Of a stretch of DNA of 64,000 nucleotides, positions 2,846-37,055 are shown piece by piece. How positions within the stretch are numbered: position 1 is the first letter of the stretch; each line of letters opens with the position of its first letter. The position numbers were made by a program, and so were the translations under genes. The stretch covers positions 1-64,000 of IMG/VR virus record IMGVR_UViG_3300032282_006300, one strand, 5' to 3'. Under the pieces are notes generated by a model, which had not been told where the DNA came from, did no database searches, and worked only from the letters and a program-made list of their open reading frames with translations. The DNA comes from a virus.

Positions 2846-2881
2846 CTACCCTTTCAAGGGGTTCAAGGGGTTACCGACAGG
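2846..2881 (-). promoter_or_regulatory. Putative late promoter (CCTGTC-N21-AAAGGGTAG)
   Basis: Copy of the recurrent motif. Confidence 0.7.
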
Positions 2882-3135
2882 GAGATTCCTGCGTGCCGTC
2901 TATCATCTTCGCTCATGCCGCCCCAGACGCCATACGGCTCTTTATGTTTGACCACAAAATCTAGGCAATTGCTAATTACTGAACAAGATTTACAAACTTT
3001 TTTGGCTTTTCGGTCTCGCAATTCTTTTTCAACGCCCCGTTCGCCCTCTGGGTGGAAAAATAGGTCCGCAAATTTATCATCTTTACATGCGGCTTTTTCC
3101 ATCCAGAGTTCAGAATTCACAATTTGATCTCCCAT
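2863..3135 (-). CDS. whiB: WhiB-family Fe-S transcription factor (WhiB3/WhiD-like)
   Basis: WxxxAAC...FFHPEGERG...CxxC...C...YGVWGG motif with four conserved Cys. Confidence 0.95.
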   Translation of the reverse strand: MGDQIVNSELWMEKAACKDDKFADLFFHPEGERGVEKELRDRKAKKVCKSCSVISNCLDFVVKHKEPYGVWGGMSEDDRRHAGISLSVTP

Positions 3136-9089: not shown

Positions 9090-9212
9090 TTTTCTCCTTA
9101 GTTCTTCAAACTTTCGGAGTTGATTTAAGTGATTACACAGTACCCCGCCACGGTAACGATCCGTGTTCCTCAGATTAAAAGTCTGATGCATCACCTTAAT
9201 GCTTGCAGGGCG

Positions 9213-9286
9213 CGACCCTGATCGGACTCGAACCGACGACATCCACCGTGACAGGGTGGCACTCTAACCAACTGAGTTACAAGGCC
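9213..9286 (-). tRNA. tRNA-Asp (GTC)
   Basis: GGCCTTGTAACTCAGTTGGTTAGAGTGCCACCCTGTCACGGTGGATGTCGTCGGTTCGAGTCCGATCAGGGTCG folds as a cloverleaf with anticodon GTC and a TTCGA T-loop. No encoded CCA. Confidence 0.93.
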
Positions 9287-26016: not shown

Positions 26017-26328
26017 TCACGGTTTGCTCACTTGCTTCTGTTGCTTCCTTACCTGAGATAGCCAAGTCGGAACTGCGTCCTTCCAGACGGCTCTGAGGTC
26101 GTCGTCGTTGTTGATGAGGTCTGCTACCCACTCGCGCGCGAGCACCACCTCCAGCAGTCGCTCCGCTTCCTCAAGTGATGTCTGCTCGTCTATCTCCAAC
26201 TGACAGACCGAGCAGAAGGCTTTGGCTTCATTGCCGGTGGAGTTGGGACAAGCAATCCAAGTCAATGAGCCATCATCTGCGTGTTCCCCGAAGGCAAAGC
26301 CTGAGCAGGGATAGTGTGTATTGTTCAT
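26017..26328 (-). CDS. Hypothetical protein
   Basis: 103-aa ORF coupled (ATGA) to the upstream gene. Confidence 0.6.
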   Translation of the reverse strand: MNNTHYPCSGFAFGEHADDGSLTWIACPNSTGNEAKAFCSVCQLEIDEQTSLEEAERLLEVVLAREWVADLINNDDDLRAVWKDAVPTWLSQVRKQQKQVSKP

Positions 26329-26786
26329 GCGCTCACCTTAGCACCTAGAGCCTCTGCTGGGTACACCATCTGCCCAGCCTCAATGTCCTCCCTGATGTGG
26401 ACTTCACTCCACTCAGGCTCAACGGTCAAGAAGCCAGAGCCGGAGAAGGGGAAGCAGGTAAGCACCAGACCGTCTACAAGCCACTCACAGCCATCATCGC
26501 CCCACTCCCATAGTCCTTTGACCAAAGGGAACTGCGCGGTCGTGTCAAACTGTCTGGCGGTCGTGTCAATGACAATCTCCTCGGCTTCCACCCAAACTGC
26601 CCAATGCTCACGACCTTGATACTCAACGCCGGTCATTCGTATCAGGCTTGCGTCAATGCCTCGGTCTTGGAGGAACTGCGCCAAGCCCTGAGAGGCAATG
26701 ACACAATGTCCCCAAGCCTTGTGAGGTACTGACAAGTCCTGCTGGCTTTCGCACCACTGCTGGACTAGCCCTAGCGTGTGGTTCAT
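26325..26786 (-). CDS. Putative transglutaminase/papain-like (Cys-His-Asp) protein
   Basis: GHCVIAS...EHWAVWV...VIDTTARQF spacing of Cys, His and Asp. Confidence 0.55.
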   Translation of the reverse strand: MNHTLGLVQQWCESQQDLSVPHKAWGHCVIASQGLAQFLQDRGIDASLIRMTGVEYQGREHWAVWVEAEEIVIDTTARQFDTTAQFPLVKGLWEWGDDGCEWLVDGLVLTCFPFSGSGFLTVEPEWSEVHIREDIEAGQMVYPAEALGAKVSA

Positions 26787-26876
26787 CTTGCTCCTTCCGT
26801 TGTTGTTGTGCCCCACCTTAGCGACTAACGCCGGAGAGTCAAGCACCCTCACCGGCGTGTCGCCAGATTGTTTGAG

Positions 26877-27161
26877 TCAGCAATACTCGCAGATTTCGCA
26901 GTGCTCCACGGCGCAACGCACTATTGGCTGGCGGAGCAACTCCAGCAGGTAGCCGAGGAACTCAGGTCGGGTGATGTCCCATGCTTCTTCTTCAATGTGT
27001 CCGTAGTGCAATGGATTGCTCTCGTCCTCCATGAGCACGAAGCCTGCGGAGCAAGACCAATCCGCTCCGTAAGTGTTCACATCTCCGCGCTCGGTGTAGA
27101 CCTCAATCTCAATGCCGACTTGCTCAGCCAGCGTGAGCACTTGCTTGAGTGTTGCCTTCAT
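26877..27161 (-). CDS. Hypothetical early protein
   Basis: Own GACAC promoter cassette and RBS. Confidence 0.65.
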   Translation of the reverse strand: MKATLKQVLTLAEQVGIEIEVYTERGDVNTYGADWSCSAGFVLMEDESNPLHYGHIEEEAWDITRPEFLGYLLELLRQPIVRCAVEHCEICEYC

Positions 27162-27248
27162 GTCTTGCCCCCTTCGTTGTCGTTGGTACTAACTTACACG
27201 CAACGCCGGAGGAGTCAAGCATTTCCACCGGCGTGTCGCAAGATTGTG

Positions 27249-27521
27249 TCAGCGCGTTGCGTTGATGGGGAACATCTCATCAAAGATTTCCCACAGTCGG
27301 GCTTCCACAAGACCGGCTTGGTCAAAGGTGTCCGATACGATAAAGGACTCGTTTGGCTTGGTCGTCCAAATCTGCCCATCGTCAAGGACAAGACGGAAGC
27401 CTGTGCCGTCTGGTGTGACCCTTTGGACAACTCGGCTCATTACCCAAGCACCTGTGCGGGGATTGCCGTGGAGGGTGATGATGTCCTGCGTCTTGATTTC
27501 GTTAGCCGGTGTCTGGTTCAT
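27249..27521 (-). CDS. Hypothetical early protein
   Basis: MNQTPA start, own promoter cassette. Confidence 0.65.
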   Translation of the reverse strand: MNQTPANEIKTQDIITLHGNPRTGAWVMSRVVQRVTPDGTGFRLVLDDGQIWTTKPNESFIVSDTFDQAGLVEARLWEIFDEMFPINATR

Positions 27522-27610
27522 TGTGTTGCTCCCTTTCGTTGTCGTTAGTACTAACATACACGCCGGTGGTCACTTTCGCGGTATTGACCACCGGCGTGTC
27601 GCAAGTTATT

Positions 27611-27982
27611 TCAGCCGTAGATTTCCTCACCAAAGATTGCCAACTGAAGCACCGTGGTGGCAACGCAAACATCCCACGACCAGAAGTCGGTGGAGATGGC
27701 ATTGCCACAGCAGGAGTCGCGCAGAGAGCGCGTCAGGGCAATCTGGAAGCCCCTCTCAATGTCAGCAATACCCAAGATGATTTCGCTTGGCTTGCCATCG
27801 TAGAAGTCGTCCTGCTTGTAATAGGTGAACTTGATTTCACCAATGGTTTCCCAATCGGCTTCGCCGAGGTACTCGGCTGAAACGCAGAAGGACTTCATCA
27901 CAGGGTCGCAATCCCAGCCTGAGCCGAAAGTGGCTTCCCATAGAGCCTTGCTGTCCACCTCTACTGCGATTGTCTGGTTCAT
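27611..27982 (-). CDS. Hypothetical early protein
   Basis: MNQTIA start, ends VLQLAIFGEEIYG, own promoter cassette. Confidence 0.7.
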   Translation of the reverse strand: MNQTIAVEVDSKALWEATFGSGWDCDPVMKSFCVSAEYLGEADWETIGEIKFTYYKQDDFYDGKPSEIILGIADIERGFQIALTRSLRDSCCGNAISTDFWSWDVCVATTVLQLAIFGEEIYG

Positions 27983-28067
27983 TGTCTTGCTCCTCTCGTT
28001 GTTGTCGTTGGTACTAACATACACGAAACGCCGGTGGAAACAAGCATTTCCACCGGCGTGTCGCGGA

Positions 28068-28364
28068 TTATTTCACGCAGTCGGGACAGCCCAACTCGCA
28101 AGGCTCAACTCGTGAGCAAAGGTCTACGACACTCTCCCAGATGTCGCCCCAAAGTTCACCGTCCGTCCTGCTGTAATAGTAATCACGGTAGTGGCTGTCA
28201 CCATAGAAGGTGTAGCCGGTCGGAGGGTCAAGGCTGACATGACCACCGGAGATAACGAGGGTGCAACCTGCTCGCTTCGCGGAGGCGATTGCTTGCGCCT
28301 TCGTTGCCTTGCGGGCGGGCTTGACGGCAAAGAGTTGGTTCAGTCGTTGTTCTAGTTCTAACAT
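28068..28364 (-). CDS. Hypothetical early protein
   Basis: MLELEQ start with AAGGAG RBS, own promoter cassette. Confidence 0.65.
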   Translation of the reverse strand: MLELEQRLNQLFAVKPARKATKAQAIASAKRAGCTLVISGGHVSLDPPTGYTFYGDSHYRDYYYSRTDGELWGDIWESVVDLCSRVEPCELGCPDCVK

Positions 28365-28519
28365 GGTCTTGCTCCTTTCGGTTGTCGTTGGTACTAACAT
28401 ACACGAGTTTGCCCGAAACCTCGGTATTTCCACCGGCGTGTCGCAAACTATTTATTTCACCAAAGACCCCTGCCAGACGGGGGATGCTGGCAGGGGTCGG
28501 TCTGGTGTCAGGTCAGGCT

Positions 28520-28891
28520 CTAACCCTCCCTGCTCGTGTCGTTCACATCGTGGCTGTGAAACTCGCCCTCGCTCTGGATTTCAGAAGCCAGCGCGTCCTC
28601 ATCATCAAGGCAGTAGTCGTTGGACTCCACCTCGTACTCAGCCTCGCTCCAATCCAGCCAACGCTCAAGGTTGTCACCGTCACCCTCGCTATCAACGAGG
28701 GTGGTGGCTTCCTGCTCATCAGTAGCCAAGACCAGCAAGGAGAAGGGCACTGTGGCTGTGACCTCCACCGTGAGCGTAATGCCAAACTCGGCAAACTCAA
28801 GTTGAGCGCGGTACTCAGCAGTGCCGGTCACGCGGAACTTGTGGAGTTCTTGCGTGAAAGCAATCTCGTCATTGCTGTCAAAGTAGTTCAT
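28520..28891 (-). CDS. Highly acidic hypothetical early protein
   Basis: 123 aa, very D/E-rich C-terminal half, own promoter cassette. Confidence 0.65.
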   Translation of the reverse strand: MNYFDSNDEIAFTQELHKFRVTGTAEYRAQLEFAEFGITLTVEVTATVPFSLLVLATDEQEATTLVDSEGDGDNLERWLDWSEAEYEVESNDYCLDDEDALASEIQSEGEFHSHDVNDTSREG

Positions 28892-29443
28892 TGTCGTCCC
28901 CTTCTGTCGGTGTAAGCGGTCTTGCTTACAAGGAATACATTACACACCTTTGCCCGAAACCTCGGCATTTACATCGGCGTGTCGCAAGATTTATTTCAGG
29001 GGAGGTAAGAATACCCCTCCCTCCCTACCCTATTTATGGTATCGGCAATCTCGCGCGAAGTCACGCACATCTACCGGCGTGTCGTGAAAAAGTTTATGGA
29101 TTTATCGGCGTGTCGCTACATAACCTGTGCTCAACTCCCCAGATTGCTCTGTATCGCACGAACGCAGGGGGGCTGGTGTGATTGGATAGGGGCAGGGCTA
29201 AGGCTCTCACAGGGGCACACAGGGCTTCTGGTGGGGGTATGCCCCTTGTCAAGCATTGACTCCGGCGTGTCGTGAACTTTCGCCTGAAACGACCAAACCC
29301 CCCTCACGACAATGGGGGGGTCTGGGAGTCGCTGGGGAGGAAAGGAATACTCCTATGCGACTGCCACGCGCTGACAAGGCGCGTGGGGGTGAGCCTAGCC
29401 GGTGAGTCACGGGGGATGGACTCACCGGCTAGGGGCGTGGGGG

Positions 29444-29818
29444 CTACATAGGCTTCACCACGATGTAGTCGGTGGCGGTAGCCAGCATTTCGGCAATCGC
29501 AGGGTACTCAGCCTTCAGGCGAGTGGTGTCAATGCCGGTGCGAGTCCGAGAGCAAGCCATAACCTGAACATAGCCTCCGACTGAACCAGCCTCGTGACCA
29601 TCAAGAAGGGTCAGGATTTGAGCGCGAACCGCCTTTTCCTGAGCCTCAAACAACTTGCTCGCGGTGCGAGCCTCGTTGAGAGCGTTCACCAACTCCAACA
29701 GGTTGGTGTTGTCAAGAGCGATAACATCATCACTCACAGCGGTCGTCTGCTTCACAGCAGGAGCAATACCGACAAGTCGCGCGATTGCGGACTTGGTGAT
29801 TTCGGTCAAAGTAGCCAT
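29444..29818 (-). CDS. Hypothetical early protein (resembles C-terminal region of YqaJ-type phage proteins)
   Basis: Coiled coil followed by IDTTRLKAEYP, strong RBS, own promoter. Confidence 0.6.
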   Translation of the reverse strand: MATLTEITKSAIARLVGIAPAVKQTTAVSDDVIALDNTNLLELVNALNEARTASKLFEAQEKAVRAQILTLLDGHEAGSVGGYVQVMACSRTRTGIDTTRLKAEYPAIAEMLATATDYIVVKPM

Positions 29819-29918
29819 TGTCGTTCCTTTCCTTGTCGTTGTAAGCGGTCTTGCTTACAGGGACTAACTTACCGGACACACCGGAGGAGTCAAGCATTTC
29901 CTCCGGCGTGTCGCGGAT

Positions 29919-30185
29919 TTATTTCGTGTTCAGCGCGTCAAACTGTGCGTGCCACTCAGGGCTTGTCGCCTTGCCACACGAGATAGCAACTTCCAGCACC
30001 GCAATCGCGGTGTCAATAGACATCACCACTTCTTGTGGTGCGTCTGGAGCAGACCACTCGTATAAGTGCCTGTCCTCTCGCGCGATGTGCCAAGACTCGT
30101 ACCGAGCCTGAGCAAGTTCGCCCAGAGCCGAGTCAAGCAGGTTCAGCACGCGAAGCGTGGTTTCCCTTTGCCTTTGGACTGTCAA
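29919..30185 (-). CDS. Hypothetical early protein
   Basis: TTG start with AAAGGA RBS, own promoter. Confidence 0.55.
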   Translation of the reverse strand: MTVQRQRETTLRVLNLLDSALGELAQARYESWHIAREDRHLYEWSAPDAPQEVVMSIDTAIAVLEVAISCGKATSPEWHAQFDALNTK

Positions 30186-30719
30186 TGTCCTTTCCTTCCT
30201 GTTGAGTTGTTGGTAATAACCTACACGAAACCTCCGACAATGCTGGGATTTCGCTCGGCGTGTCGCAAACTTTATGAGATTTATTTATTTATTGGAGTCA
30301 CCGGCGTGTCGCTACACGACCTGTGAGTAAATCCTCCCTAACGGACTTTCAGGCAGGGGGTGGGGTGATTGCCCCTAAACAGGGGGTAAATGGCTTAGAA
30401 CGGCGCACAGGGCTTCTCCGGCGATTTGGCTAAAGTCAAGCATTTGGCTCGGCGTGTCGGGAACTTTCGTGACAATAGCAACCGCACGACTTGACCTGCC
30501 CTTCGCGCTCGTATGACTCACGACACGCCGAGTGCTGATGTGTCAAGCACCAGCCGAAACTTGTGGTACGGTCGGAGGTGGACTTTGGCTTCGGCTTCGG
30601 CTTCGGCTTTGCCCTAGTCATTGGCTTGCCCCCCTGAGCAGGGGCAGAGGTCGCTGGGCGAGTTCGGGAGTCAGCCCCCTGCCGGTGACATAACGGACAT
30701 TTCGGGCATAGCCCGATTT

Positions 30720-30943
30720 GAGTCCGAACTGAAAGTCCGGCGGCGAACTTGCTGGCTGACCCTGAGAGTCCACACAAGGTGTCCCAGCCTGTGATTGTGA
30801 CAAAGACCGGCGACAGTCCGAAGCCCCCTGGAATAGTCCGAACTCAGTCCGGTCATAGTCCCCTAATAGGGTGGTACGCATTAGTCCGAAGTCAGTCCGA
30901 GCATAGTCCCCTATGCTCAGTCCGACCTCAGTCCGGTAGTTCG
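30720..30943. repeat. Iteron-like array of (T/C)AGTCCG units, often 11 bp apart
   Basis: About 9 AGTCCG plus AGTCCC/AGTTCG variants in 220 bp. Confidence 0.85.
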
Positions 30944-30946
30944 GCA

Positions 30947-31417
30947 TTACCAACTCGCCCGATACTGAAACTCCCAGCCTTGAGGAGTGTCCTTCAGCAC
31001 ACGCTCTAGTTGCTCAATGGAGTCGTCAATGTCTGACCAATAGGACTCGTCAATCTCGGTTGAGCCGAAGAAGAAGCCAGCGCAAGGAGGCAACAGTTCC
31101 TCAGCGACCTCCTTGCCTCCAGCCTTGACATTGAGGCAGATGGTCAGCAGTTCGCTCAGTTGCTCACGACCGACATACATCTCCTGACATTCGTCAATGC
31201 CTCGCCCACAGTTGTCTACGAACCAGCGATGGATTTGATTTGCCTTGCGCCAATAGCCAACGGACAGGTCAATCTTTGCTGAAGGCACGAAGCCCCCTAC
31301 AAAGTCTTGACCTTTGACGGCCTCCAAGACCGCGCTGAAGGTGTCCTGATTGGCTTGGGACTGATAGATAGACTCGCTGACATACTTAGTCGCGGTCAGG
31401 TATTGGTCTAGACCCAT
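30947..31417 (-). CDS. Conserved phage hypothetical protein
   Basis: MGLDQYL...YWRKANQIHRWFV...GFFFGST...YRASW family signature. Confidence 0.8.
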   Translation of the reverse strand: MGLDQYLTATKYVSESIYQSQANQDTFSAVLEAVKGQDFVGGFVPSAKIDLSVGYWRKANQIHRWFVDNCGRGIDECQEMYVGREQLSELLTICLNVKAGGKEVAEELLPPCAGFFFGSTEIDESYWSDIDDSIEQLERVLKDTPQGWEFQYRASW

Positions 31418-31418
31418 C

Positions 31419-31691
31419 TCAATCACCCTCCTCATCAAGCCACGGTTCTAGGTGGTGTCCATCAACGATTGCCCACGCTGGCGCGCTCATCTCACCGCGA
31501 TACAGAATACCTTCGGGGAGGTCAATGTCTGCCTCGCTGTTGCCCTCGTTCACAGCCTCAATGGCCAGCACGCAAGGCTCAATCATTGTGGCGGGCACAG
31601 GTGGGTAGTGATTGTTGGTGAGGTGGATAGATAGTGCTTGACGCAAGCCAAACATACTCGTGGCTAGGTCTTGTGCGAAGTTGCTTCCCAT
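31419..31691 (-). CDS. Conserved actinophage hypothetical protein
   Basis: HLTNNHYPPVP...IVDGHHLEPWL. Confidence 0.7.
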   Translation of the reverse strand: MGSNFAQDLATSMFGLRQALSIHLTNNHYPPVPATMIEPCVLAIEAVNEGNSEADIDLPEGILYRGEMSAPAWAIVDGHHLEPWLDEEGD

Positions 31692-31775
31692 TGTCGTTCC
31701 TTCCTTGTTGTTGGTAGTTCCATTGTGGCACACACCGGAGGTCATTTGGGGGATTGACCTCCGGTGTGTCGGGAC

Positions 31776-32195
31776 TTATTCCGCAACAGCCAGCAGGATA
31801 AGTCGTTTCACATCACTGCCATAACCGCGCTCCAACATCTGAGCAAACAGTTGCGCGAGCCGGTTGTCCTCATTGTCGCCCTGACTCATCTCAAAGAAGT
31901 GCTGAGATACTTCGGGCAAGCCCCAGCAATGAGCGAGGATACTCGCCACAATCGCAGGGTGGTCGCGCTCACCATCAGGTGCGATGGTTGCGTACTCGTA
32001 GATGAAAGTTCGCAGTTCATACGCACCATCATCACTGCTCAGGGCAAGCCCCAGAACATTGTCGCGCACATACAGGTTGCTGAACGCGCTGGCCAGCATG
32101 GCAAACACTTCAGGCGTGTAGGTGCGTTCATTGTTGTCAATGGCAACAGCGAAGTCCACGACTGCCTGAACCTCTGAGTCGCTGTGGCTAATCAC
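31776..32195 (-). CDS. DUF4192-like helical protein
   Basis: VRDNVL...IVASILA...NRLAQL, similar in pattern to 21867-22325. Confidence 0.45.
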   Translation of the reverse strand: MISHSDSEVQAVVDFAVAIDNNERTYTPEVFAMLASAFSNLYVRDNVLGLALSSDDGAYELRTFIYEYATIAPDGERDHPAIVASILAHCWGLPEVSQHFFEMSQGDNEDNRLAQLFAQMLERGYGSDVKRLILLAVAE

Positions 32196-32362
32196 ATTGA
32201 CTCCTTAGCAAGTTGGATAGCGCGAACCATACCGCTTGCCCAGCCATCGTTGTATTGGATTTCCTCGTCCTCCAACTCGCCTTCCTCAGCCTCAGCCTTG
32301 TCTAGCGCGGTCGTCTGGTCGTGTTCTGCCTGAAGGACTTTGATGAGTTCCTCAATGGTCAT
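32192..32362 (-). CDS. Small acidic hypothetical protein (56 aa, below ORF-track cutoff)
   Basis: MTIEELIKVLQAEHDQTTALDKAEAEEGELEDEE..., follows a promoter cassette with GGAAGGAAG RBS. Confidence 0.6.
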   Translation of the reverse strand: MTIEELIKVLQAEHDQTTALDKAEAEEGELEDEEIQYNDGWASGMVRAIQLAKESM

Positions 32363-32511
32363 TGTCTTGCTTCCTTCCTTGTTGTTGTTGTTGTTGTTGG
32401 TCTTACTATTTCACACACTCTGGTCATTTCGGTGTATTGACCTCGGCGTGTCGTGGACTTATTTCGGAAGGTGTTGCCCCTGCCCAATGGCGGTCAGGCA
32501 GGGGCAAGTAC

Positions 32512-33348
32512 CTATCCCTCCTCGTAGAAGTCAAACGAGTTCCAAGCCTCGTCCTCGTCCCAATCGTTGTCCCAAGCAGAGCCGTCAGACCCAAGCAAGG
32601 GCACATAGTCAGGGTTGGCAATCTCAGCCAACACTTCATAGCGACAGGTACGCAACTTCTGGAAGTCGCAGTCGCGCGGAACGGATACAACATCGCGAGG
32701 GTTGATTTTCACCTTGACCACGCGAGGTGCGAAGGTGGAGGCGTAGTCCCAAGTGCCAGCGTGGAGTCCGGTAGAACAGCCCTCAAAGGCGTTTGCGTTC
32801 ACGCGATTGCGAGGCATTTCCACGATTGACCCAACAGAGTTCGGGACATTACCGTAGACGGTCTGACCATCTACGATTGCTTCCCCAGAGTGAACCGAGG
32901 TGAGGTCGTCCCTCAGACCCTTGTAGGCGATAAAGTCACCGTCCTCAGTAATGGTGAAGTTCCGGTCGTTGAGCCAAGTGTAAAGTTGCTCACGACTGTT
33001 GCCATTACGGTTCTGGAGTACCTTCTCGTAGAAGTTCACGAGAGGCACGAAATCGTAGATACCCTGCTTCTGAAAGCGCGAGATTTGCGCCGACAAAGAG
33101 TTGTCCACGAGTTCACCATCAACATACACACGACCATCGCTGATTGAGATACGGTCGCTGACCTTCTCAAAGGCTTGTCGTGCTTGCTCGGCTAGGTCAA
33201 ACAAGCCAAACACTTGAGGGTCGTCCTTGATAACTCCCTCAATAATCTGCGCGAACGCAGGGTGATTGTTGGTGGCTGTGTAGACCTTGCCACCTTGTAG
33301 CACCGTAATGGCTGAGCCATTACCTGTGCTGATGAGTTCGTAAAGCAT
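32512..33348 (-). CDS. rIIB: rIIB-like protein
   Basis: NPS-like NRNGNSREQLY...ITEDGDFIAYK...VEMPR...CSTGLHAG...KINPRDVVSVP.D....R.CRYEV. Confidence 0.9.
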   Translation of the reverse strand: MLYELISTGNGSAITVLQGGKVYTATNNHPAFAQIIEGVIKDDPQVFGLFDLAEQARQAFEKVSDRISISDGRVYVDGELVDNSLSAQISRFQKQGIYDFVPLVNFYEKVLQNRNGNSREQLYTWLNDRNFTITEDGDFIAYKGLRDDLTSVHSGEAIVDGQTVYGNVPNSVGSIVEMPRNRVNANAFEGCSTGLHAGTWDYASTFAPRVVKVKINPRDVVSVPRDCDFQKLRTCRYEVLAEIANPDYVPLLGSDGSAWDNDWDEDEAWNSFDFYEEG

Positions 33349-33482
33349 TTCGTTTCCTTCCTTGTAGTTGTTAGTTCTAACTTACCATCTGGGACTGACA
33401 AACCGTGTATTGACGACCGGCGTGTCGTGAGAAGTTTCGGCAGGGCAGGTCAGGCAGGGAAGCCCTGACCTGCCCCTGACCG

Positions 33483-35519
33483 TCACTCGCTGGACTGCTG
33501 ACGCAGGGCATAGGAAGCGTTGAGGTAGATAACAAACTCAGCCCTGACGAGTTCACTATCGGTCACACGACCCAGCCAGATTTCGTTGAGCAGGGGATAA
33601 CTGTGAAGGCTGGTCTTGTAGTCGCTGACCAAAGACTCACCGATAGAGAACGAAAGCGTTCGTGCCAACTTGCGGAACTTGCTCACGACCTCACCGACCT
33701 TCTCATAGCAATCTTTCAGGTCGCGCAGTTCGTCAATGAACTGCTGGTCGTCTACCAATCCCTCTAGCGCGTCAGCGAGTTTGGCTGGCTGACCGAACGA
33801 GTTGTTATTGGAGTTGTAGAGAACAACCTCGCGCGATGTGAACGCTGTCAATGCTTCAGCATAGTCGCGCTTGATTGCTTGTTGGACTGTCAGAGCCAGA
33901 GGGTTCTCTCGCAAGAACTTGTCCTGACGGTTCTTGGCAACTTCCACGACCGCGTAGTTGTCCTCCACAAAATGCTCCACAATACGATTGCGCGAATAGC
34001 CACGGTACTCGTCATTGCTCAGTTCCGTTGGCGAGAAGTAGAGAACCTGCTTGCCAGCAAAGTCAATGCTGTCGGCTGGCATAAGCCCTCCGTTGTTGGT
34101 GACAAGTTCCCAATCCTTAGTGCGTGTTGGGGAGTTCGCGGTGGTCGTTCCAACAGATTGCTTGTGAACTTTGATTGCCTTGATTGTTGAGTAATCAACG
34201 GCAAGAACATTGACCCACTCGCCGACAAAGTTGGTGTCTGCGAATAAGTATTCCGTTGGAGCAGTTTCCAAAGCGAGCGTGTCCACATAAGCGTTCACTC
34301 TCTCAATGGTCGTGGCAGAAGGGTACGACTCACTGCTGTATCCGGTGACAAGAAGTACCTTGCCCAAGTCGCTCGCAATAATAGAACTTTGACGAGAGTT
34401 CTTACGACTACCGTAAGAAGGACTGAGTTGGTGGAGCAGGTAAGAATAACGGAACTGATTGGGCACAGTTTCGCCCCTGAACTCAAACCGCTTGTTGCTG
34501 TCCTCAATGTTGCGCGCAATCGCTCGCCATTGGGTCGCTTCCTCAAAGGCTTCTGCCTTGTTGTTAGCCCTTCCGACATCGGCATAGGCTTTATTGCGTG
34601 CGTTCTTGCGTGCGATGTTCACGAGTTCGGCAAGTCGCTTCTCGGTTCGGTCTGTCAAGTGTAGTTCCTCACGGCTTGGCACGAAGTTGAGTTCGCCCAT
34701 TGGAACTGTGAATACGACAAGGCAATCAAACCAACGGTTGAGTTCGTCTGCGATGTTGCGTGGAGCAGGGTAAGGCACTCCACCCATTACGAAGGTGTGC
34801 GCGCTAATCCTGTCGTCTACCGATTGCGCGCGCCAAGAACTCCAAGCAGGCAGGTTGGTAGCAACAATGGACACATCGTCAGTTCCGACTTCCTTGCCCT
34901 CCACCTTGACATTAGGTTCACCGTCAATCAAGACAGAACCGGACTCCCAGACAGAGAACAGTATCTTAGCCTTGCTTGCGAACTTGTTGTCCGGCTTGGC
35001 TGGGACAGTAATCTTGACTCCGTTGCGTTCGGTCGTGGAGGCGGTGTCCATCACCGACATAGTGCCAGCACCGTCAGTCTTGACTGAGATAAGTACCTCA
35101 GACTTCACACCGTCCTTCACAGCCGTCATAATGAACTGTGAGGCATAGGTCAGGGCAGACTTTGAGCCAAGACCGAGCATACCTGTTTGCTCATTGGACT
35201 CGCGCTTAGTGCTTGCTCCATAGCGTGAGTAGATAGCAGTAATGTCGTCAAGCGACAGCCCTAAGCCAAAGTCCTGAATAGTCAGGAACGGAGAGAGCGT
35301 GTTGGGGAGATTGACCTCAATGGGGGCAGGGTTGCCAGAGGCGATGTGAGAGTCGCGCGCGTTGCTGGAATACTCACGCAAGACTGCCATTTCGGGGTCG
35401 GAGTAGAGGTTGGTCAGAACGCTCATAATGTGAGCGAGCGAGTTCTGGTCAATGCTCATCTCAATGGACTCGCCCTCAAAGGTTGAGGACTTACGAATAC
35501 CTGTCTTTGCTGGTATCAC
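33483..35519 (-). CDS. rIIA: rIIA-like protein (GHKL/HATPase N-terminus)
   Basis: LYSDP.MAVLREYSSNARDSH...IQDFGLGLS...YGASTKR.SN...GMLGLGSKS...SREEL, adjacent to rIIB. Confidence 0.9.
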   Translation of the reverse strand: MIPAKTGIRKSSTFEGESIEMSIDQNSLAHIMSVLTNLYSDPEMAVLREYSSNARDSHIASGNPAPIEVNLPNTLSPFLTIQDFGLGLSLDDITAIYSRYGASTKRESNEQTGMLGLGSKSALTYASQFIMTAVKDGVKSEVLISVKTDGAGTMSVMDTASTTERNGVKITVPAKPDNKFASKAKILFSVWESGSVLIDGEPNVKVEGKEVGTDDVSIVATNLPAWSSWRAQSVDDRISAHTFVMGGVPYPAPRNIADELNRWFDCLVVFTVPMGELNFVPSREELHLTDRTEKRLAELVNIARKNARNKAYADVGRANNKAEAFEEATQWRAIARNIEDSNKRFEFRGETVPNQFRYSYLLHQLSPSYGSRKNSRQSSIIASDLGKVLLVTGYSSESYPSATTIERVNAYVDTLALETAPTEYLFADTNFVGEWVNVLAVDYSTIKAIKVHKQSVGTTTANSPTRTKDWELVTNNGGLMPADSIDFAGKQVLYFSPTELSNDEYRGYSRNRIVEHFVEDNYAVVEVAKNRQDKFLRENPLALTVQQAIKRDYAEALTAFTSREVVLYNSNNNSFGQPAKLADALEGLVDDQQFIDELRDLKDCYEKVGEVVSKFRKLARTLSFSIGESLVSDYKTSLHSYPLLNEIWLGRVTDSELVRAEFVIYLNASYALRQQSSE

Positions 35520-35630
35520 TTTGGAACTTCCCTTCGGTTGTTGTTGGTGACGGTCATCACCTTGTGCCCTAATCATTACACGACAAACGCCGATACTCGT
35601 GGATTGAGTACCGGCGTGTCGCGGATTATT

Positions 35631-35993
35631 TCAGAACGAGTAGGTATTGACCTTCTCAACCGATTTCATACGAGCCTTCAGCACCTTCTCGTACTCCGAA
35701 CGCTCGTGATACACATAGCCACAGGAGTTGCCTGTGCCAACGAAGTAGAAGATTGTGGTGAAGCAGTTGTAAGGGTCACAGGCGTTGTCCATCTTCCACC
35801 TCAGACCCCCCATGTCGTCTACCCAAACATCGTCAATCGGGATACCGCAGGAGAAGTGATACACCTTCGCCAGATAGTCCTTCTTGACCCACCCTTTCGG
35901 GTTGAGCAGTCGCGCAGTCTTGGAGGCTTCCGTCAGGCTGGTGTTCTTTCCCCAGCGACCGTTTCCACCAATGACGACATAGAAATCAGACAT
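35631..35993 (-). CDS. Hypothetical early protein
   Basis: 120 aa with GGGAG RBS, first gene downstream of the non-coding hub. Confidence 0.6.
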   Translation of the reverse strand: MSDFYVVIGGNGRWGKNTSLTEASKTARLLNPKGWVKKDYLAKVYHFSCGIPIDDVWVDDMGGLRWKMDNACDPYNCFTTIFYFVGTGNSCGYVYHERSEYEKVLKARMKSVEKVNTYSF

Positions 35994-36246
35994 ACAATCA
36001 TCTCCCCTGTTGAGTTATGCCAGCACTTGCTGACAAGAACTAACTTAGCACCTCAGACCCCCGAAACCGTGTATTGACCGCTTCGGCGTGTCGCCGGAAT
36101 AGAGATTTCCAACTATTTCCAAACTCTCGGCGTGTCGCTACAAGGGCTGTATGTAAATGCTCTGTAATCGCCTGAAACGATGTGGTTGGTATGGTTGGGT
36201 GGATACGGGGGGTAAGTGGCTCAAATCGCCTCCTACGGCTTCTAAA

Positions 36247-36271
36247 GACCATTGTCCCACATTGTTCCACT
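36247..36271 (-). promoter_or_regulatory. Short MraZ-type GTGG decamer repeat
   Basis: GTGGAACAAT-GTGGGACAAT-GG on the minus strand, 10-bp period. Confidence 0.4.
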
Positions 36272-36456
36272 ATGTCCGATTTGCTCTGCTCTGTTGAGTT
36301 ATGGCTTTCGCTACCTCAAGCATAGCATCACTTGACCCAAAATCTTGGTATTGACTCTCGGCGTGTCGTGAAAAGATTTATTTATTTTCGGCGTGTCGGT
36401 ACTTGATTTCGCGCCTCAAAAGAGTAAAGTTGAGTTTGGTGCCCAAAAACATTTAT

Positions 36457-36472
36457 TCGTACAGGTGTTCTA
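36457..36472. promoter_or_regulatory. LexA (SOS)-box-like site
   Basis: TCGTAC-AGGT-GTTCTA versus the actinobacterial consensus TCGAAC-N4-GTTCGA (2 mismatches). Confidence 0.5.
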
Positions 36473-36654
36473 ATCCAACGACACTCTGTTGCCTCGGTTC
36501 CCTAACTCACCAGCCTAATGCCAAATGGGGCACTTGTCAAAGACCGACACGCGGTTTGGTAGGTGTTTATCATCACACTCAAATCGGCGTGTCTTGCCAA
36601 GATTTCAGGTATGGTTCGGCTATGGTGGTCGTGCCCACGAGCATAACCTACCTT

Positions 36655-36824: not shown

Positions 36825-36951
36825 CTATCCACAGACCTCACGCCTGTATCCACAGGTTATCCACAGGTCGCAAGTTATCCACAGGTTATCCACAAGGTTG
36901 TCCACATTGTGGATAAAATCTGTGGATAACTTGTCCACAGCCTGTGGATAG
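36825..36951. promoter_or_regulatory. Cluster of 10 DnaA boxes
   Basis: TTATCCACA at 36857, 36875, 36886. TGTGGATAA at 36908, 36921. TTGTCCACA at 36898, 36931. One-mismatch boxes at 36825, 36846, 36943. Confidence 0.9.
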
Positions 36952-37055
36952 TGCCTGTCCGTTATGTCCGATTTGCCAGACACGGGGGGTCTCAGCGCCA
37001 GCCAGACCCGCGGGGAGCCATACCATACCCCTACCCCCGCCGCGCGCGTGGACCA

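Follow-up and report, generated by a model that had tools for sequence, protein, structure and literature searches.

Predicted WhiA-box promoters between exchangeable single-gene cassettes in the genome of a probable actinophage

The first 64,000 nucleotides (nt) of the IMG/VR virus record IMGVR_UViG_3300032282_006300 (hereafter the window; the whole record comprises 123,830 bp with terminal repeats and is rated 100 % complete) contain an array of co-oriented open reading frames (ORFs), most of which are preceded by a copy of the same compact intergenic unit, consisting of a 10-nt box, a predicted promoter and a leader (Table 1). The box is identical to the recognition sequence reported for the actinobacterial cell-division regulator WhiA, which makes WhiA of the host a candidate activator of the array. 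A preliminary description made from the sequence alone had located the array correctly but not its reading direction: all ORFs of at least 150 amino acids (aa) with a gene-like appearance lie on the minus strand of the window, and the array must therefore be read on this strand. With a G+C content of 0.52–0.56, as compared to 0.39–0.50 elsewhere in the window, it opens what is probably the early-transcribed part of the genome of a lytic, approximately 124-kb phage, an early timing being suggested by the rII genes, the small ORFans and the host-type promoters adjoining a palindromic cluster of DnaA boxes.

The window contains 21 exact copies of the box, CGACACGCCG, and the remainder of the genome none. 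Twenty of the copies are located on the minus strand and one on the plus strand, and all fall between positions 26,853 and 36,398, a segment of 9.5 kb in a genome of 124 kb. No other 10-mer is as frequent in the genome, while the reversed pattern used as control has no copy in it. When up to one mismatch is allowed, 26 matches are found in the window against 1.96 expected, a number reached by none of 100 shuffles, and the 8-mer GACACGCC has 22 copies in the genome (26,861–36,593; 21 on the minus strand). Inclusion of two one-base variants (31771 and 36594; single boxes and their units are referred to by the higher coordinate of the box) brings the number of co-oriented boxes to 22, in agreement with the roughly 22 copies, nearly all co-oriented, that had been described. 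Thirteen of these boxes open a unit that leads via a Shine–Dalgarno sequence into an ORF, four are the upstream members of tandem pairs (four pairs, at distances of 30, 31, 44 and 46 nt), two are followed by a -10-like hexamer without an ORF, another two by TTGACT or TTGACA ahead of conserved noncoding segments, and the last is the variant 36594. The plus-strand copy (30521–30530) and the box at 30450–30459 pair as a 12-bp inverted repeat.

In an alignment of 15 units, an A-rich tract, within which the preceding ORF often has its stop codon, is followed by the invariant box, by AAT (7–9 nt past the box), by the -35 position (10–11 nt past the box), by a -10 of the form TA..(G)T(T) preceded by GTG, by a CAA-rich leader resembling AGTACCAACGACAAC and finally by an AAGGA-type ribosome-binding site; the leader and the ribosome site noted in the preliminary description are hence conserved parts of the unit. 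The AAT was considered as a contact of WhiB and rejected, as it has no counterpart in the dominant IMG/VR family of box promoters (see below), and it may accordingly reflect paralogy only. The usual actinobacterial -10, TANNNT, starts 32 or 33 nt after the end of the box at 10 of the 22 boxes (i. e., 36–37 nt after GACAC, the distance already recognized earlier) and 34 or 36 nt after it at two more. At 32 or 33 nt, 0.26 of 22 would be expected from its frequency (62 in 10,401 positions), and the resulting binomial P of 3e-14 overstates the independence of the units, which are paralogous. TTGACT or TTGACA lies 10 nt past the box and 14 nt past GACAC in five units (26862, 27238, 29913, 30459 and 29272), which bears out the occasional TTGACT of the preliminary description. 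A good -35 (TTGACT) is present in only four of the 14 units examined, for which reason a scan with a generic E. coli-type sigma-70 consensus misses the units (five promoters found against 4.9 expected, without enrichment at units). In all 13 units preceding ORFs, the box lies upstream of the -35 position. Start codons follow 66–92 nt past the end of the box, and for seven of the 13 ORFs the previous stop codon falls 4–14 nt before the next box, a proximity that had likewise been seen. Among the sequencing runs with near-identical DNA, no RNA run carries the region.

The identity of the box with the WhiA site extends beyond the GACAC core on which the preliminary description had based this assignment (the literature is cited here and below from excerpts of the respective articles). 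In Mycobacterium tuberculosis, chromatin immunoprecipitation sequencing (ChIP-seq) and in vitro IDAP-seq of WhiA yield GACACGCC, ChIP-seq of WhiB2 yields the same motif, and the top WhiA motif from the ChIP-seq of Minch et al., as quoted there, reads 'CGACACGCCGn' (PMC13473873); the function of WhiB2 in M. smegmatis moreover needs cGACACGc (PMC13473873). The phage 10-mer matches the motif quoted in these excerpts letter for letter, so that the site recognized by WhiA, with its GACAC core and in the mycobacterial forms GACACGCC and CGACACGCCG, is present as 22 8-mers and 21 10-mers, respectively. Structurally, GACAC is read by the C-terminal domain (CTD) of WhiA, WhiB sits on region 4 of sigma-A and touches the minor groove just upstream of -35, and the CTD of the RNA polymerase alpha subunit (alpha-CTD) is bound directly upstream of the WhiA site (PMC10243135). 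At sepX, GACAC lies on the non-template strand, and orientation and spacing differ between targets (PMC10243135). In the predicted promoters of the array, the box is found upstream of the -35 position on the non-template strand and co-oriented with the ORFs, as at sepX, and the order of A-tract, box and -35 matches that of alpha-CTD, WhiA-CTD, WhiB and sigma-4 in the excerpted sepX complex, a comparison made by order and strand. A hunt for the sepX promoter itself, with a pattern derived from the wording of the paper, gave one doubtful match in 401 genomes. Regarding the direction of regulation, the helix-turn-helix (HTH) domain of WhiA reads a GAYACRCY core in several phyla, where WhiA acts as a repressor, and the repressing site of Mollicutes is located 22–40 nt downstream of the start site (PMC11701221); in Streptomyces venezuelae, WhiA is an activator about as often as a repressor, without a link to the orientation of the motif (PMC3781837). 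The 2016 Mollicutes paper has no WhiA motif in its text.

In part of the units, the predicted promoter is joined with a stem-loop. Folding of the sense RNA from the box to the -10 and comparison with shuffles gave z scores of -3 or below in eight of 14 folded units (z ≤ -6 in five, i. e., 35621, 31771, 29913, 28063 and 27601, and -4.3, -3.0 and -3.0 in three), whereas six units with a perfect box have no significant hairpin (z from -0.25 to -2.2). In the stems of 10–17 bp, the box represents the 5' arm and the -35 position is placed in the loop. The consensus structure of eight units comprises 10 pairs, four of them with compensatory changes, and the variant box 31771 has a changed partner. 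As several stems require G-U pairs, the sense RNA is favored as the folding species.

Comparison with relatives supports the reading that the repeated units recombine and would thereby delete and swap single cassettes. Contigs of the sequencing runs X2, X3 and X7, which stem from three studies, join position 27172 to 27535, skipping 362 nt with 12 nt in common at the joint; the joint is located within 12 nt common to the leaders of the 27601 and 27238 units and what is lost is precisely ORF B (27521..27249) and the promoter that follows it. One X2 contig is devoid of ORF A (27982..27611), with the joint at 27521/27996. Among two JGI contigs, L440 carries A, C and then a different last gene and L433 carries B and then that gene, without A and C, as compared to A, B and C in the window. 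All these joints fall into a shared leader or promoter and none into the box, and their position in the homologous leader argues for homologous recombination rather than site-specific excision. In the same direction points the lack of an encoded recombinase (no match to the tyrosine and serine recombinase families PF00589 and PF00239 in the complete genome, with controls matched in 14 of 14 and 12 of 14 genomes), which suggests recombination between repeats and not excision of the integron type. The order is otherwise kept, as an X5 contig of 8.9 kb is colinear over 27,663–36,615. A further joint in run X7 (29835/31045) is weak, with 21 nt on one side, and was left unused. In the relative L429, with an overall identity of 92.8 % (1547/1667), all six boxes are conserved in 10 of 10 positions, the -10 hexamers in 35 of 36 positions and a noncoding segment in 147 of 147, while the flanked ORF 28364..28068 agrees in only 221 of 297 nt (74 % nt identity versus 93 % overall, though its flanking promoter units are conserved). 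The recombination between units and the variable cassette order anticipated by the preliminary description are thus borne out for single cassettes.

Table 1. Coordinates of the array and of features discussed with it (positions in the window; box positions within units in brackets; aa, amino acids; nt, nucleotides; z, hairpin score against shuffles).
Feature	Position	Strand	Match or remark
Whole array	26786..36603	-	22 co-oriented WhiA-type boxes, 13 box-promoter-leader-ORF units, three noncoding repeat segments
Palindromic cluster of about eight TTATCCACA-type DnaA boxes	36850..36960	.	Immediately upstream of the array
Variant box AGACACGCCG, first box of the array	36585..36594	-	One-base variant
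Tandem boxes (36389-36398 and 36359-36368, 30 nt), TATGCT -10-like 34 nt after the second	36319..36398	-	No ORF of at least 40 aa after it
Tandem boxes (36128-36137 and 36084-36093, 44 nt), TAAGTT 36 nt after the second, leader, ATG	35993..36137	-	
Cassette ORF, 120 aa	35631..35993	-	No family match
Unit (box 35612-35621), strong hairpin (z -6.2), TAATGA at -10 position, CAA-rich leader, GTG start	35519..35621	-	
rIIA homologue, 678 aa from GTG	33483..35519	-	PHROG 612, E 3e-87
Unit (box 33418-33427), TAAGTT 33 nt past the box	33348..33427	-	
rIIB homologue, 278 aa	32512..33348	-	PHROG 609, E 6e-60
Unit (box 32444-32453), weak hairpin (z -3.0), (CAA)n leader	32362..32453	-	
Two overlapping ORFs, 56 aa and 139 aa	31776..32362	-	Second ORF: weak DUF4192 match below Pfam cut-off
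Unit with variant box CGACACACCG (31762-31771), hairpin partner with matching change (z -7.1)	31691..31771	-	
ORFs of 90 aa (31691..31419) and 163 aa (31438..30947)	30947..31691	-	90-aa ORF: 47 % homologue beside G412 box cluster
Cys-rich small ORF	30436..30777	-	Holds the sole plus-strand box (30521-30530), ends in box 30450-30459
Noncoding repeat segment B, after box 30459 and TTGACT	30312..30449	-	Paralogous to 29116-29262 and 36138-36300
Tandem boxes (30302-30311 and 30256-30265, 46 nt), TAGGTT -10, leader, TTG start	30185..30311	-	
Cassette ORF, 88 aa	29919..30185	-	
Unit (box 29904-29913), TTGACT, TAAGTT, strong hairpin with G-U pairs (z -7.4)	29818..29913	-	
Cassette ORF, 124 aa, like C-terminal part of RecE-like exonuclease families	29444..29818	-	PHROG 434, E 5e-10; 33 % homologue in G409
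Box 29263-29272 and TTGACA, then noncoding repeat segment C	29116..29272	-	Segment 147/147 identical in L429
Tandem boxes (29106-29115 and 29075-29084, 31 nt)	29075..29115	-	
Unit (box 28975-28984), TAATGT -10	28891..28984	-	
Cassette ORF, 123 aa	28520..28891	-	
Unit (box 28434-28443), TATGTT -10	28364..28443	-	
Cassette ORF, 98 aa, hypervariable	28068..28364	-	221/297 nt in L429; 'same length, diverged' in three runs
Unit (box 28054-28063), TATGTT -10, strong hairpin (z -6.7)	27982..28063	-	
Cassette ORF A, 123 aa	27611..27982	-	Missing from L433 and one X2 contig
Unit (box 27592-27601), TATGTT -10, strong hairpin (z -6.1)	27521..27601	-	
Cassette ORF B, 90 aa	27249..27521	-	Missing from contigs of X2, X3, X7 (three studies) and L440
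Unit (box 27229-27238), TTGACT, TAAGTT	27161..27238	-	
Cassette ORF C, 94 aa	26877..27161	-	Missing from L433
Last unit (box 26853-26862), TTGACT, TAAGGT, hairpin (z -4.3)	26786..26862	-	
ORF D, 153 aa, first gene of the following box-free run	26325..26786	-	L433, L440: different ORF here
WhiB-like gene, 90 aa, four-Cys motif and GVWGG	2863..3135	-	Pfam PF02467, 75 bits against a cut-off of 23.6

The preliminary description had assigned the cassettes to host takeover, a designation for which their sequences offer little: apart from rIIA, rIIB, the RecE-like ORF and the DUF4192 match below threshold, nothing annotated in Pfam or PHROGs was matched by the ORFs of the array. Full-length matches of the rIIA homologue are led by those of Streptomyces phages at about 32 %. 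The segments 29116–29262, 30312–30449 and 36138–36300 are paralogous, C-rich and noncoding, measure about 130 nt, and are each located between a box and a tandem pair. They have in common AGAAGCC.., TTACCCCC.G, CCAA.CA..CCA and ACAG..TGTAG, and all three fold no better than shuffles (z of -0.13, +0.61 and -0.27). At positions 30700–30945, where no convincing gene separates ORF 31438..30947 from the Cys-rich ORF, CGGACT/GGACTG recurs about ten times with irregular spacing. The DnaA-box palindrome ahead of the array (36850–36960) may serve as an origin of replication or as a sink for DnaA; numerous metagenome contigs stop or diverge at it, and an Rfam search of it returned only sub-threshold, miRNA-like matches. 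Outside the array, the minus strand carries two adjacent tRNA genes at 9140–9286, namely tRNA-Lys(ttt) and tRNA-Asp(gtc). Tandem repeats of 36 bp are present at both ends of the record (1–190 and 123,655–123,830, also 122,212–122,870), with 27-bp repeats in their vicinity. The 'direct terminal repeat' of the record may simply be an assembly break that fell inside tandemly repeated, probably coding sequence.

The phage encodes a WhiB-like protein (Wbl; Table 1) and no WhiA HTH domain. According to the excerpts of PMC13013590, the WhiB family is limited to actinobacteria and their phages, and the presence of the gene accordingly makes an actinobacterium the probable host. The portal protein is closest to those of Rhodococcus phage E3 and of Mycobacterium phages (42–44 %), and 209 of its 228 matching records belong to Mycobacterium phages. 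Near-identical DNA was found in 20 DNA runs from 12 studies, mostly metagenomes of freshwater, lakes, sediment and drinking water, so that, judged from sequence, the host is probably a freshwater actinobacterium. A megablast search of the region against phage records gave no match, and an rIIA-based search of IMG/VR revealed no close relatives.

Box promoters are not confined to this phage. The pattern box-N8-13-TTGAC-N17-19-TANNNT was found in at least 119 IMG/VR stretches, as compared to four for a control with the reversed box. Its 121 matches correspond to at least 110 distinct promoters, in which the gap from the box to the -35 amounts to 9 nt in 81 cases (8–13 nt overall) and the spacer to 17 nt in 92; as one large family dominates, they do not represent 110 independent lineages. 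Among the matches listed, the G+C content of the loci has a median of 0.38 and extremes of 0.34 and 0.66. In the dominant low-G+C family (IMG/VR loci L270–L388, e. g., L272 and L353), a TGTGA-N6-TCACA palindrome, the CRP/GlxR-type consensus, is placed 2 nt upstream of the box, suggesting that these promoters combine two host regulators. WhiB exceeded the Pfam cut-off in 0 of 5, 2 of 5 and 7 of 12 box-bearing records (9 of 22 in total), and in 5 of 7 of those at least 90 % complete. Other box-bearing records have clusters of 4–14 copies of the 8-mer, and the 22 copies reported here are the most seen. A distant relative, the WhiB-positive G412 (100 kb, 36 % G+C), has several genes in common with the phage at 40–60 %, and its box cluster lies among TTATCCACA boxes, adjoining a 47 % homologue of array ORF 31691..31419. 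This shared neighborhood suggests that a few ancestral box promoters were amplified in the present phage. The complete 28.9-kb phage G004 (L234/L235), which is devoid of WhiB, contains six exact co-oriented boxes and one variant 8-mer between 21,036 and 27,942; five of the six lie downstream of a conserved TTACATAATACA element at a distance of about 13 nt, which differs from the arrangement in the window and resembles that of a repressor site.

Several further searches were less informative. The pattern AATNNNNCGACACGCCGG gave 117 single, uninformative matches, blastn of one unit against phage records two spurious ones, and a pattern combining box, spacing and -10/leader nine stretches, mostly single and chance-like, which pointed to L247 and L249. 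A tandem-box pattern matched 109 stretches, many of them coding Asp-Thr-Pro repeats in high-G+C contigs, and the count itself was hence not used. On the bacterial side, an Acidimicrobiia genome of 4.4 Mb has 123 copies of the 10-mer against 28 of the control, and exact boxes are absent from 10 of 17 small Actinomycetota genomes, the contexts examined having a coding appearance. A search of open-access full text, with subscription journals and supplements outside its scope, revealed no publication that connects the WhiA motif with promoters of phages, and the word 'phage' does not occur in the M. tuberculosis paper (PMC13473873).

Based on the exact identity of the motif, the geometry of the units, the phage WhiB gene and the association of box and promoter throughout the collection, we regard it as quite probable that WhiA binds the boxes, be it in an activating or repressing manner, and as moderately probable that the array is transcribed by WhiA-dependent activation. 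Host WhiA would bind the box via its C-terminal HTH, and a WhiB-type partner (host WhiB/WhiB2 or phage Wbl) on sigma-A region 4 would, together with WhiA, bring RNA polymerase to promoters of which most are without a -35, which would make expression of the array dependent on the WhiA/WhiB state of the host. In about half of the units, the hairpin may in addition provide the 3' end signal of the preceding cassette, and the near-identical units would allow homologous recombination to delete, duplicate and exchange single-gene cassettes.

A number of observations weigh against this account. The phage Wbl has WhiB3 as its closest solved structure (1.3e-16, with Streptomyces WhiB at 2e-11) and resembles WhiB3 more closely in sequence than it does WhiB/WhiB2, the partner of WhiA, and its gene is located 23 kb from the array among structural-looking genes. 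Thirteen of the 22 box-bearing records tested show no WhiB, including two complete 29-kb genomes, many of the others being fragments. In the isolated actinophages nearest by protein (E3, Tonenili, TunaTartare, Coruscant and Wakanda), the 8-mer is neither enriched nor clustered (1, 7, 6, 6 and 2 copies versus 6, 14, 5, 0 and 5 of the reversed controls), and box-N32-TANNNT has two matches in 41 Actinomycetota genomes against one of the control. Furthermore, the fixed spacing may partly reflect recent duplication of the paralogous units, and WhiA occurs outside Actinobacteria as well and can repress (excerpts of PMC11701221 and PMC3781837). The hairpins have no U-tract, and a terminator scan gave no enrichment; we accordingly infer that they are weak terminators or processing/stability signals for the upstream cassette.

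The capacity of WhiA to repress leads to the closest rival, according to which the boxes are WhiA sites with a negative function, i. e., WhiA would serve as a repressor, as a roadblock between cassettes or as an energy-state switch and would keep the array silent until it is displaced or until Wbl alters the complex. Such a role would fit the about equal shares of activation and repression by WhiA in S. venezuelae (PMC3781837, as excerpted), the ATP-sensing repressor WhiA of Mycoplasma (PMC11701221, likewise), the boxes of G004 about 13 nt downstream of the -10-like TAATAC, which is a repressor-type position, and the placement of the box immediately behind a stop codon, so that read-through could be blocked by a protein bound there. 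We nevertheless consider it unlikely, as the box is upstream of the -35 position in 13 of 13 units preceding ORFs, whereas the repressing site of Mollicutes lies, according to the excerpts of PMC11701221, 22–40 nt downstream of the start site; a good -35 in only 4 of 14 units is moreover typical of activator-dependent promoters, and the order of the elements is that of the activating sepX complex as excerpted.

Alternatively, the protein binding the box might be encoded by the phage or be a host factor other than WhiA, in which case the match to the WhiA motif would be coincidence or mimicry. Most ORFs of the array are without known function and one is Cys-rich, the 10-of-10 conservation exceeds the 5–8 bp that WhiA is known to read in the excerpted literature, and 13 of 22 box-bearing records tested show no WhiB, all of which would agree with a different binder. 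On the other hand, the coupling of the 10-mer to promoters exceeds the control at least 30-fold and extends over phage contigs of 34–66 % G+C whose flanks are otherwise unrelated, which points to a conserved host factor, and the array has one ORF in common with G409 and one with G412, among which no conserved candidate binder was seen; we therefore deem this scenario quite improbable. Very improbable, in our view, is a structural, recombination or replication signal without promoter role, be it the base of a terminator hairpin, an attC-like site or the iterons of a DnaA origin. While the box does form the 5' arm of strong hairpins with compensatory changes in five to eight of 14 units, the cassette joints lie inside units, and the array starts beside a DnaA-box palindrome here and in G412, six of 14 units combine a perfect box with no significant hairpin, the joints avoid the box in favor of leader or promoter, and no recombinase is encoded. 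Likewise, the distance from box to -35/-10 is fixed in this phage as well as in at least 119 further stretches of phage DNA, and the boxes are spread across 9.7 kb between genes and not clustered at the origin.

If WhiA-dependent activation applies, the units would be closest to the WhiA/WhiB sigma-A promoters, exemplified by sepX and by the WhiA/WhiB2 regulon of M. tuberculosis. Both have the GACAC core, including the full mycobacterial CGACACGCCG, upstream of the -35 on the non-template strand, a weak or absent -35, and room for a WhiB-type bridge as well as an upstream alpha-CTD site. The present boxes differ from them in being phage-borne and dense (about two per kb, versus 123 in the 4.4-Mb Acidimicrobiia genome), and in being perfect copies with one fixed spacing and four tandem pairs, whereas host targets vary in spacing and orientation according to the excerpts. 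The core also fits the GAYACRCY of the WhiA operator at the rpsJ promoter of Mollicutes, which, as excerpted, represses from 22–40 nt downstream of the start, unlike the phage box upstream of the -35.

With regard to the exchange of cassettes, the array resembles the PeSL elements of T4-like phages, i. e., short repeated intergenic combinations of stem-loop and early promoter flanking small variable ORFs (PMC4122927, PMC2839356, as excerpted), for which homologous recombination between repeats has been proposed as mechanism (PMC4122927). In both cases, indels and replacements between close relatives end inside the repeats, and rIIA and rIIB occur in the same region. In contrast to PeSLs, the phage hairpin overlaps the promoter, with the -35 position in its loop, has no U-tract and carries the site of a host activator; there is no sequence likeness, the hosts differ (probably actinobacterial versus Gram-negative), and neither a canonical terminator of stem and U-tract nor a subsequent T4-type sigma-70 early promoter is enriched in consensus scans of the array. 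The analogy may thus be said to hold functionally, not in detail. The array had initially been called integron-like, and it does share with integrons co-oriented single-gene cassettes, a repeated and partly palindromic element, and presence or absence of cassettes that varies between relatives. This analogy fails, however, since the genome encodes no IntI-type or other integrase and the 13 cassettes each have their own box/-10/leader unit instead of a shared Pc; the PeSLs of T4 are the closer parallel.

More broadly, WhiA-box promoters might constitute a class of actinophage promoters that is widespread but has not been described before, mostly in WhiB-encoding phages of 100–125 kb. The whiB genes found in so many actinophages would serve to operate this class, in that phage Wbl and host WhiA together would turn a phage regulon on or off, and the unit would have been amplified here to a 22-box array that drives cassette exchange. 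This wider proposal, which rests on the sequence comparisons described above, is put forward tentatively, as possible rather than probable. Cell division in actinobacteria, pathogens included, is under the control of the essential regulators WhiA and WhiB, and actinophages often carry whiB. If the proposed WhiA dependence is true, phage expression would be read through the division regulator of the host, perhaps with the phage Wbl as partner, and the array would represent a set of about 15 natural, near-isogenic promoter variants with or without -35, with or without hairpin, and with single or tandem boxes, on which activation by WhiA and WhiB could be dissected. The cassette polymorphisms, in turn, indicate that modular shuffling of the PeSL type is not limited to T4-like phages of Gram-negative hosts.

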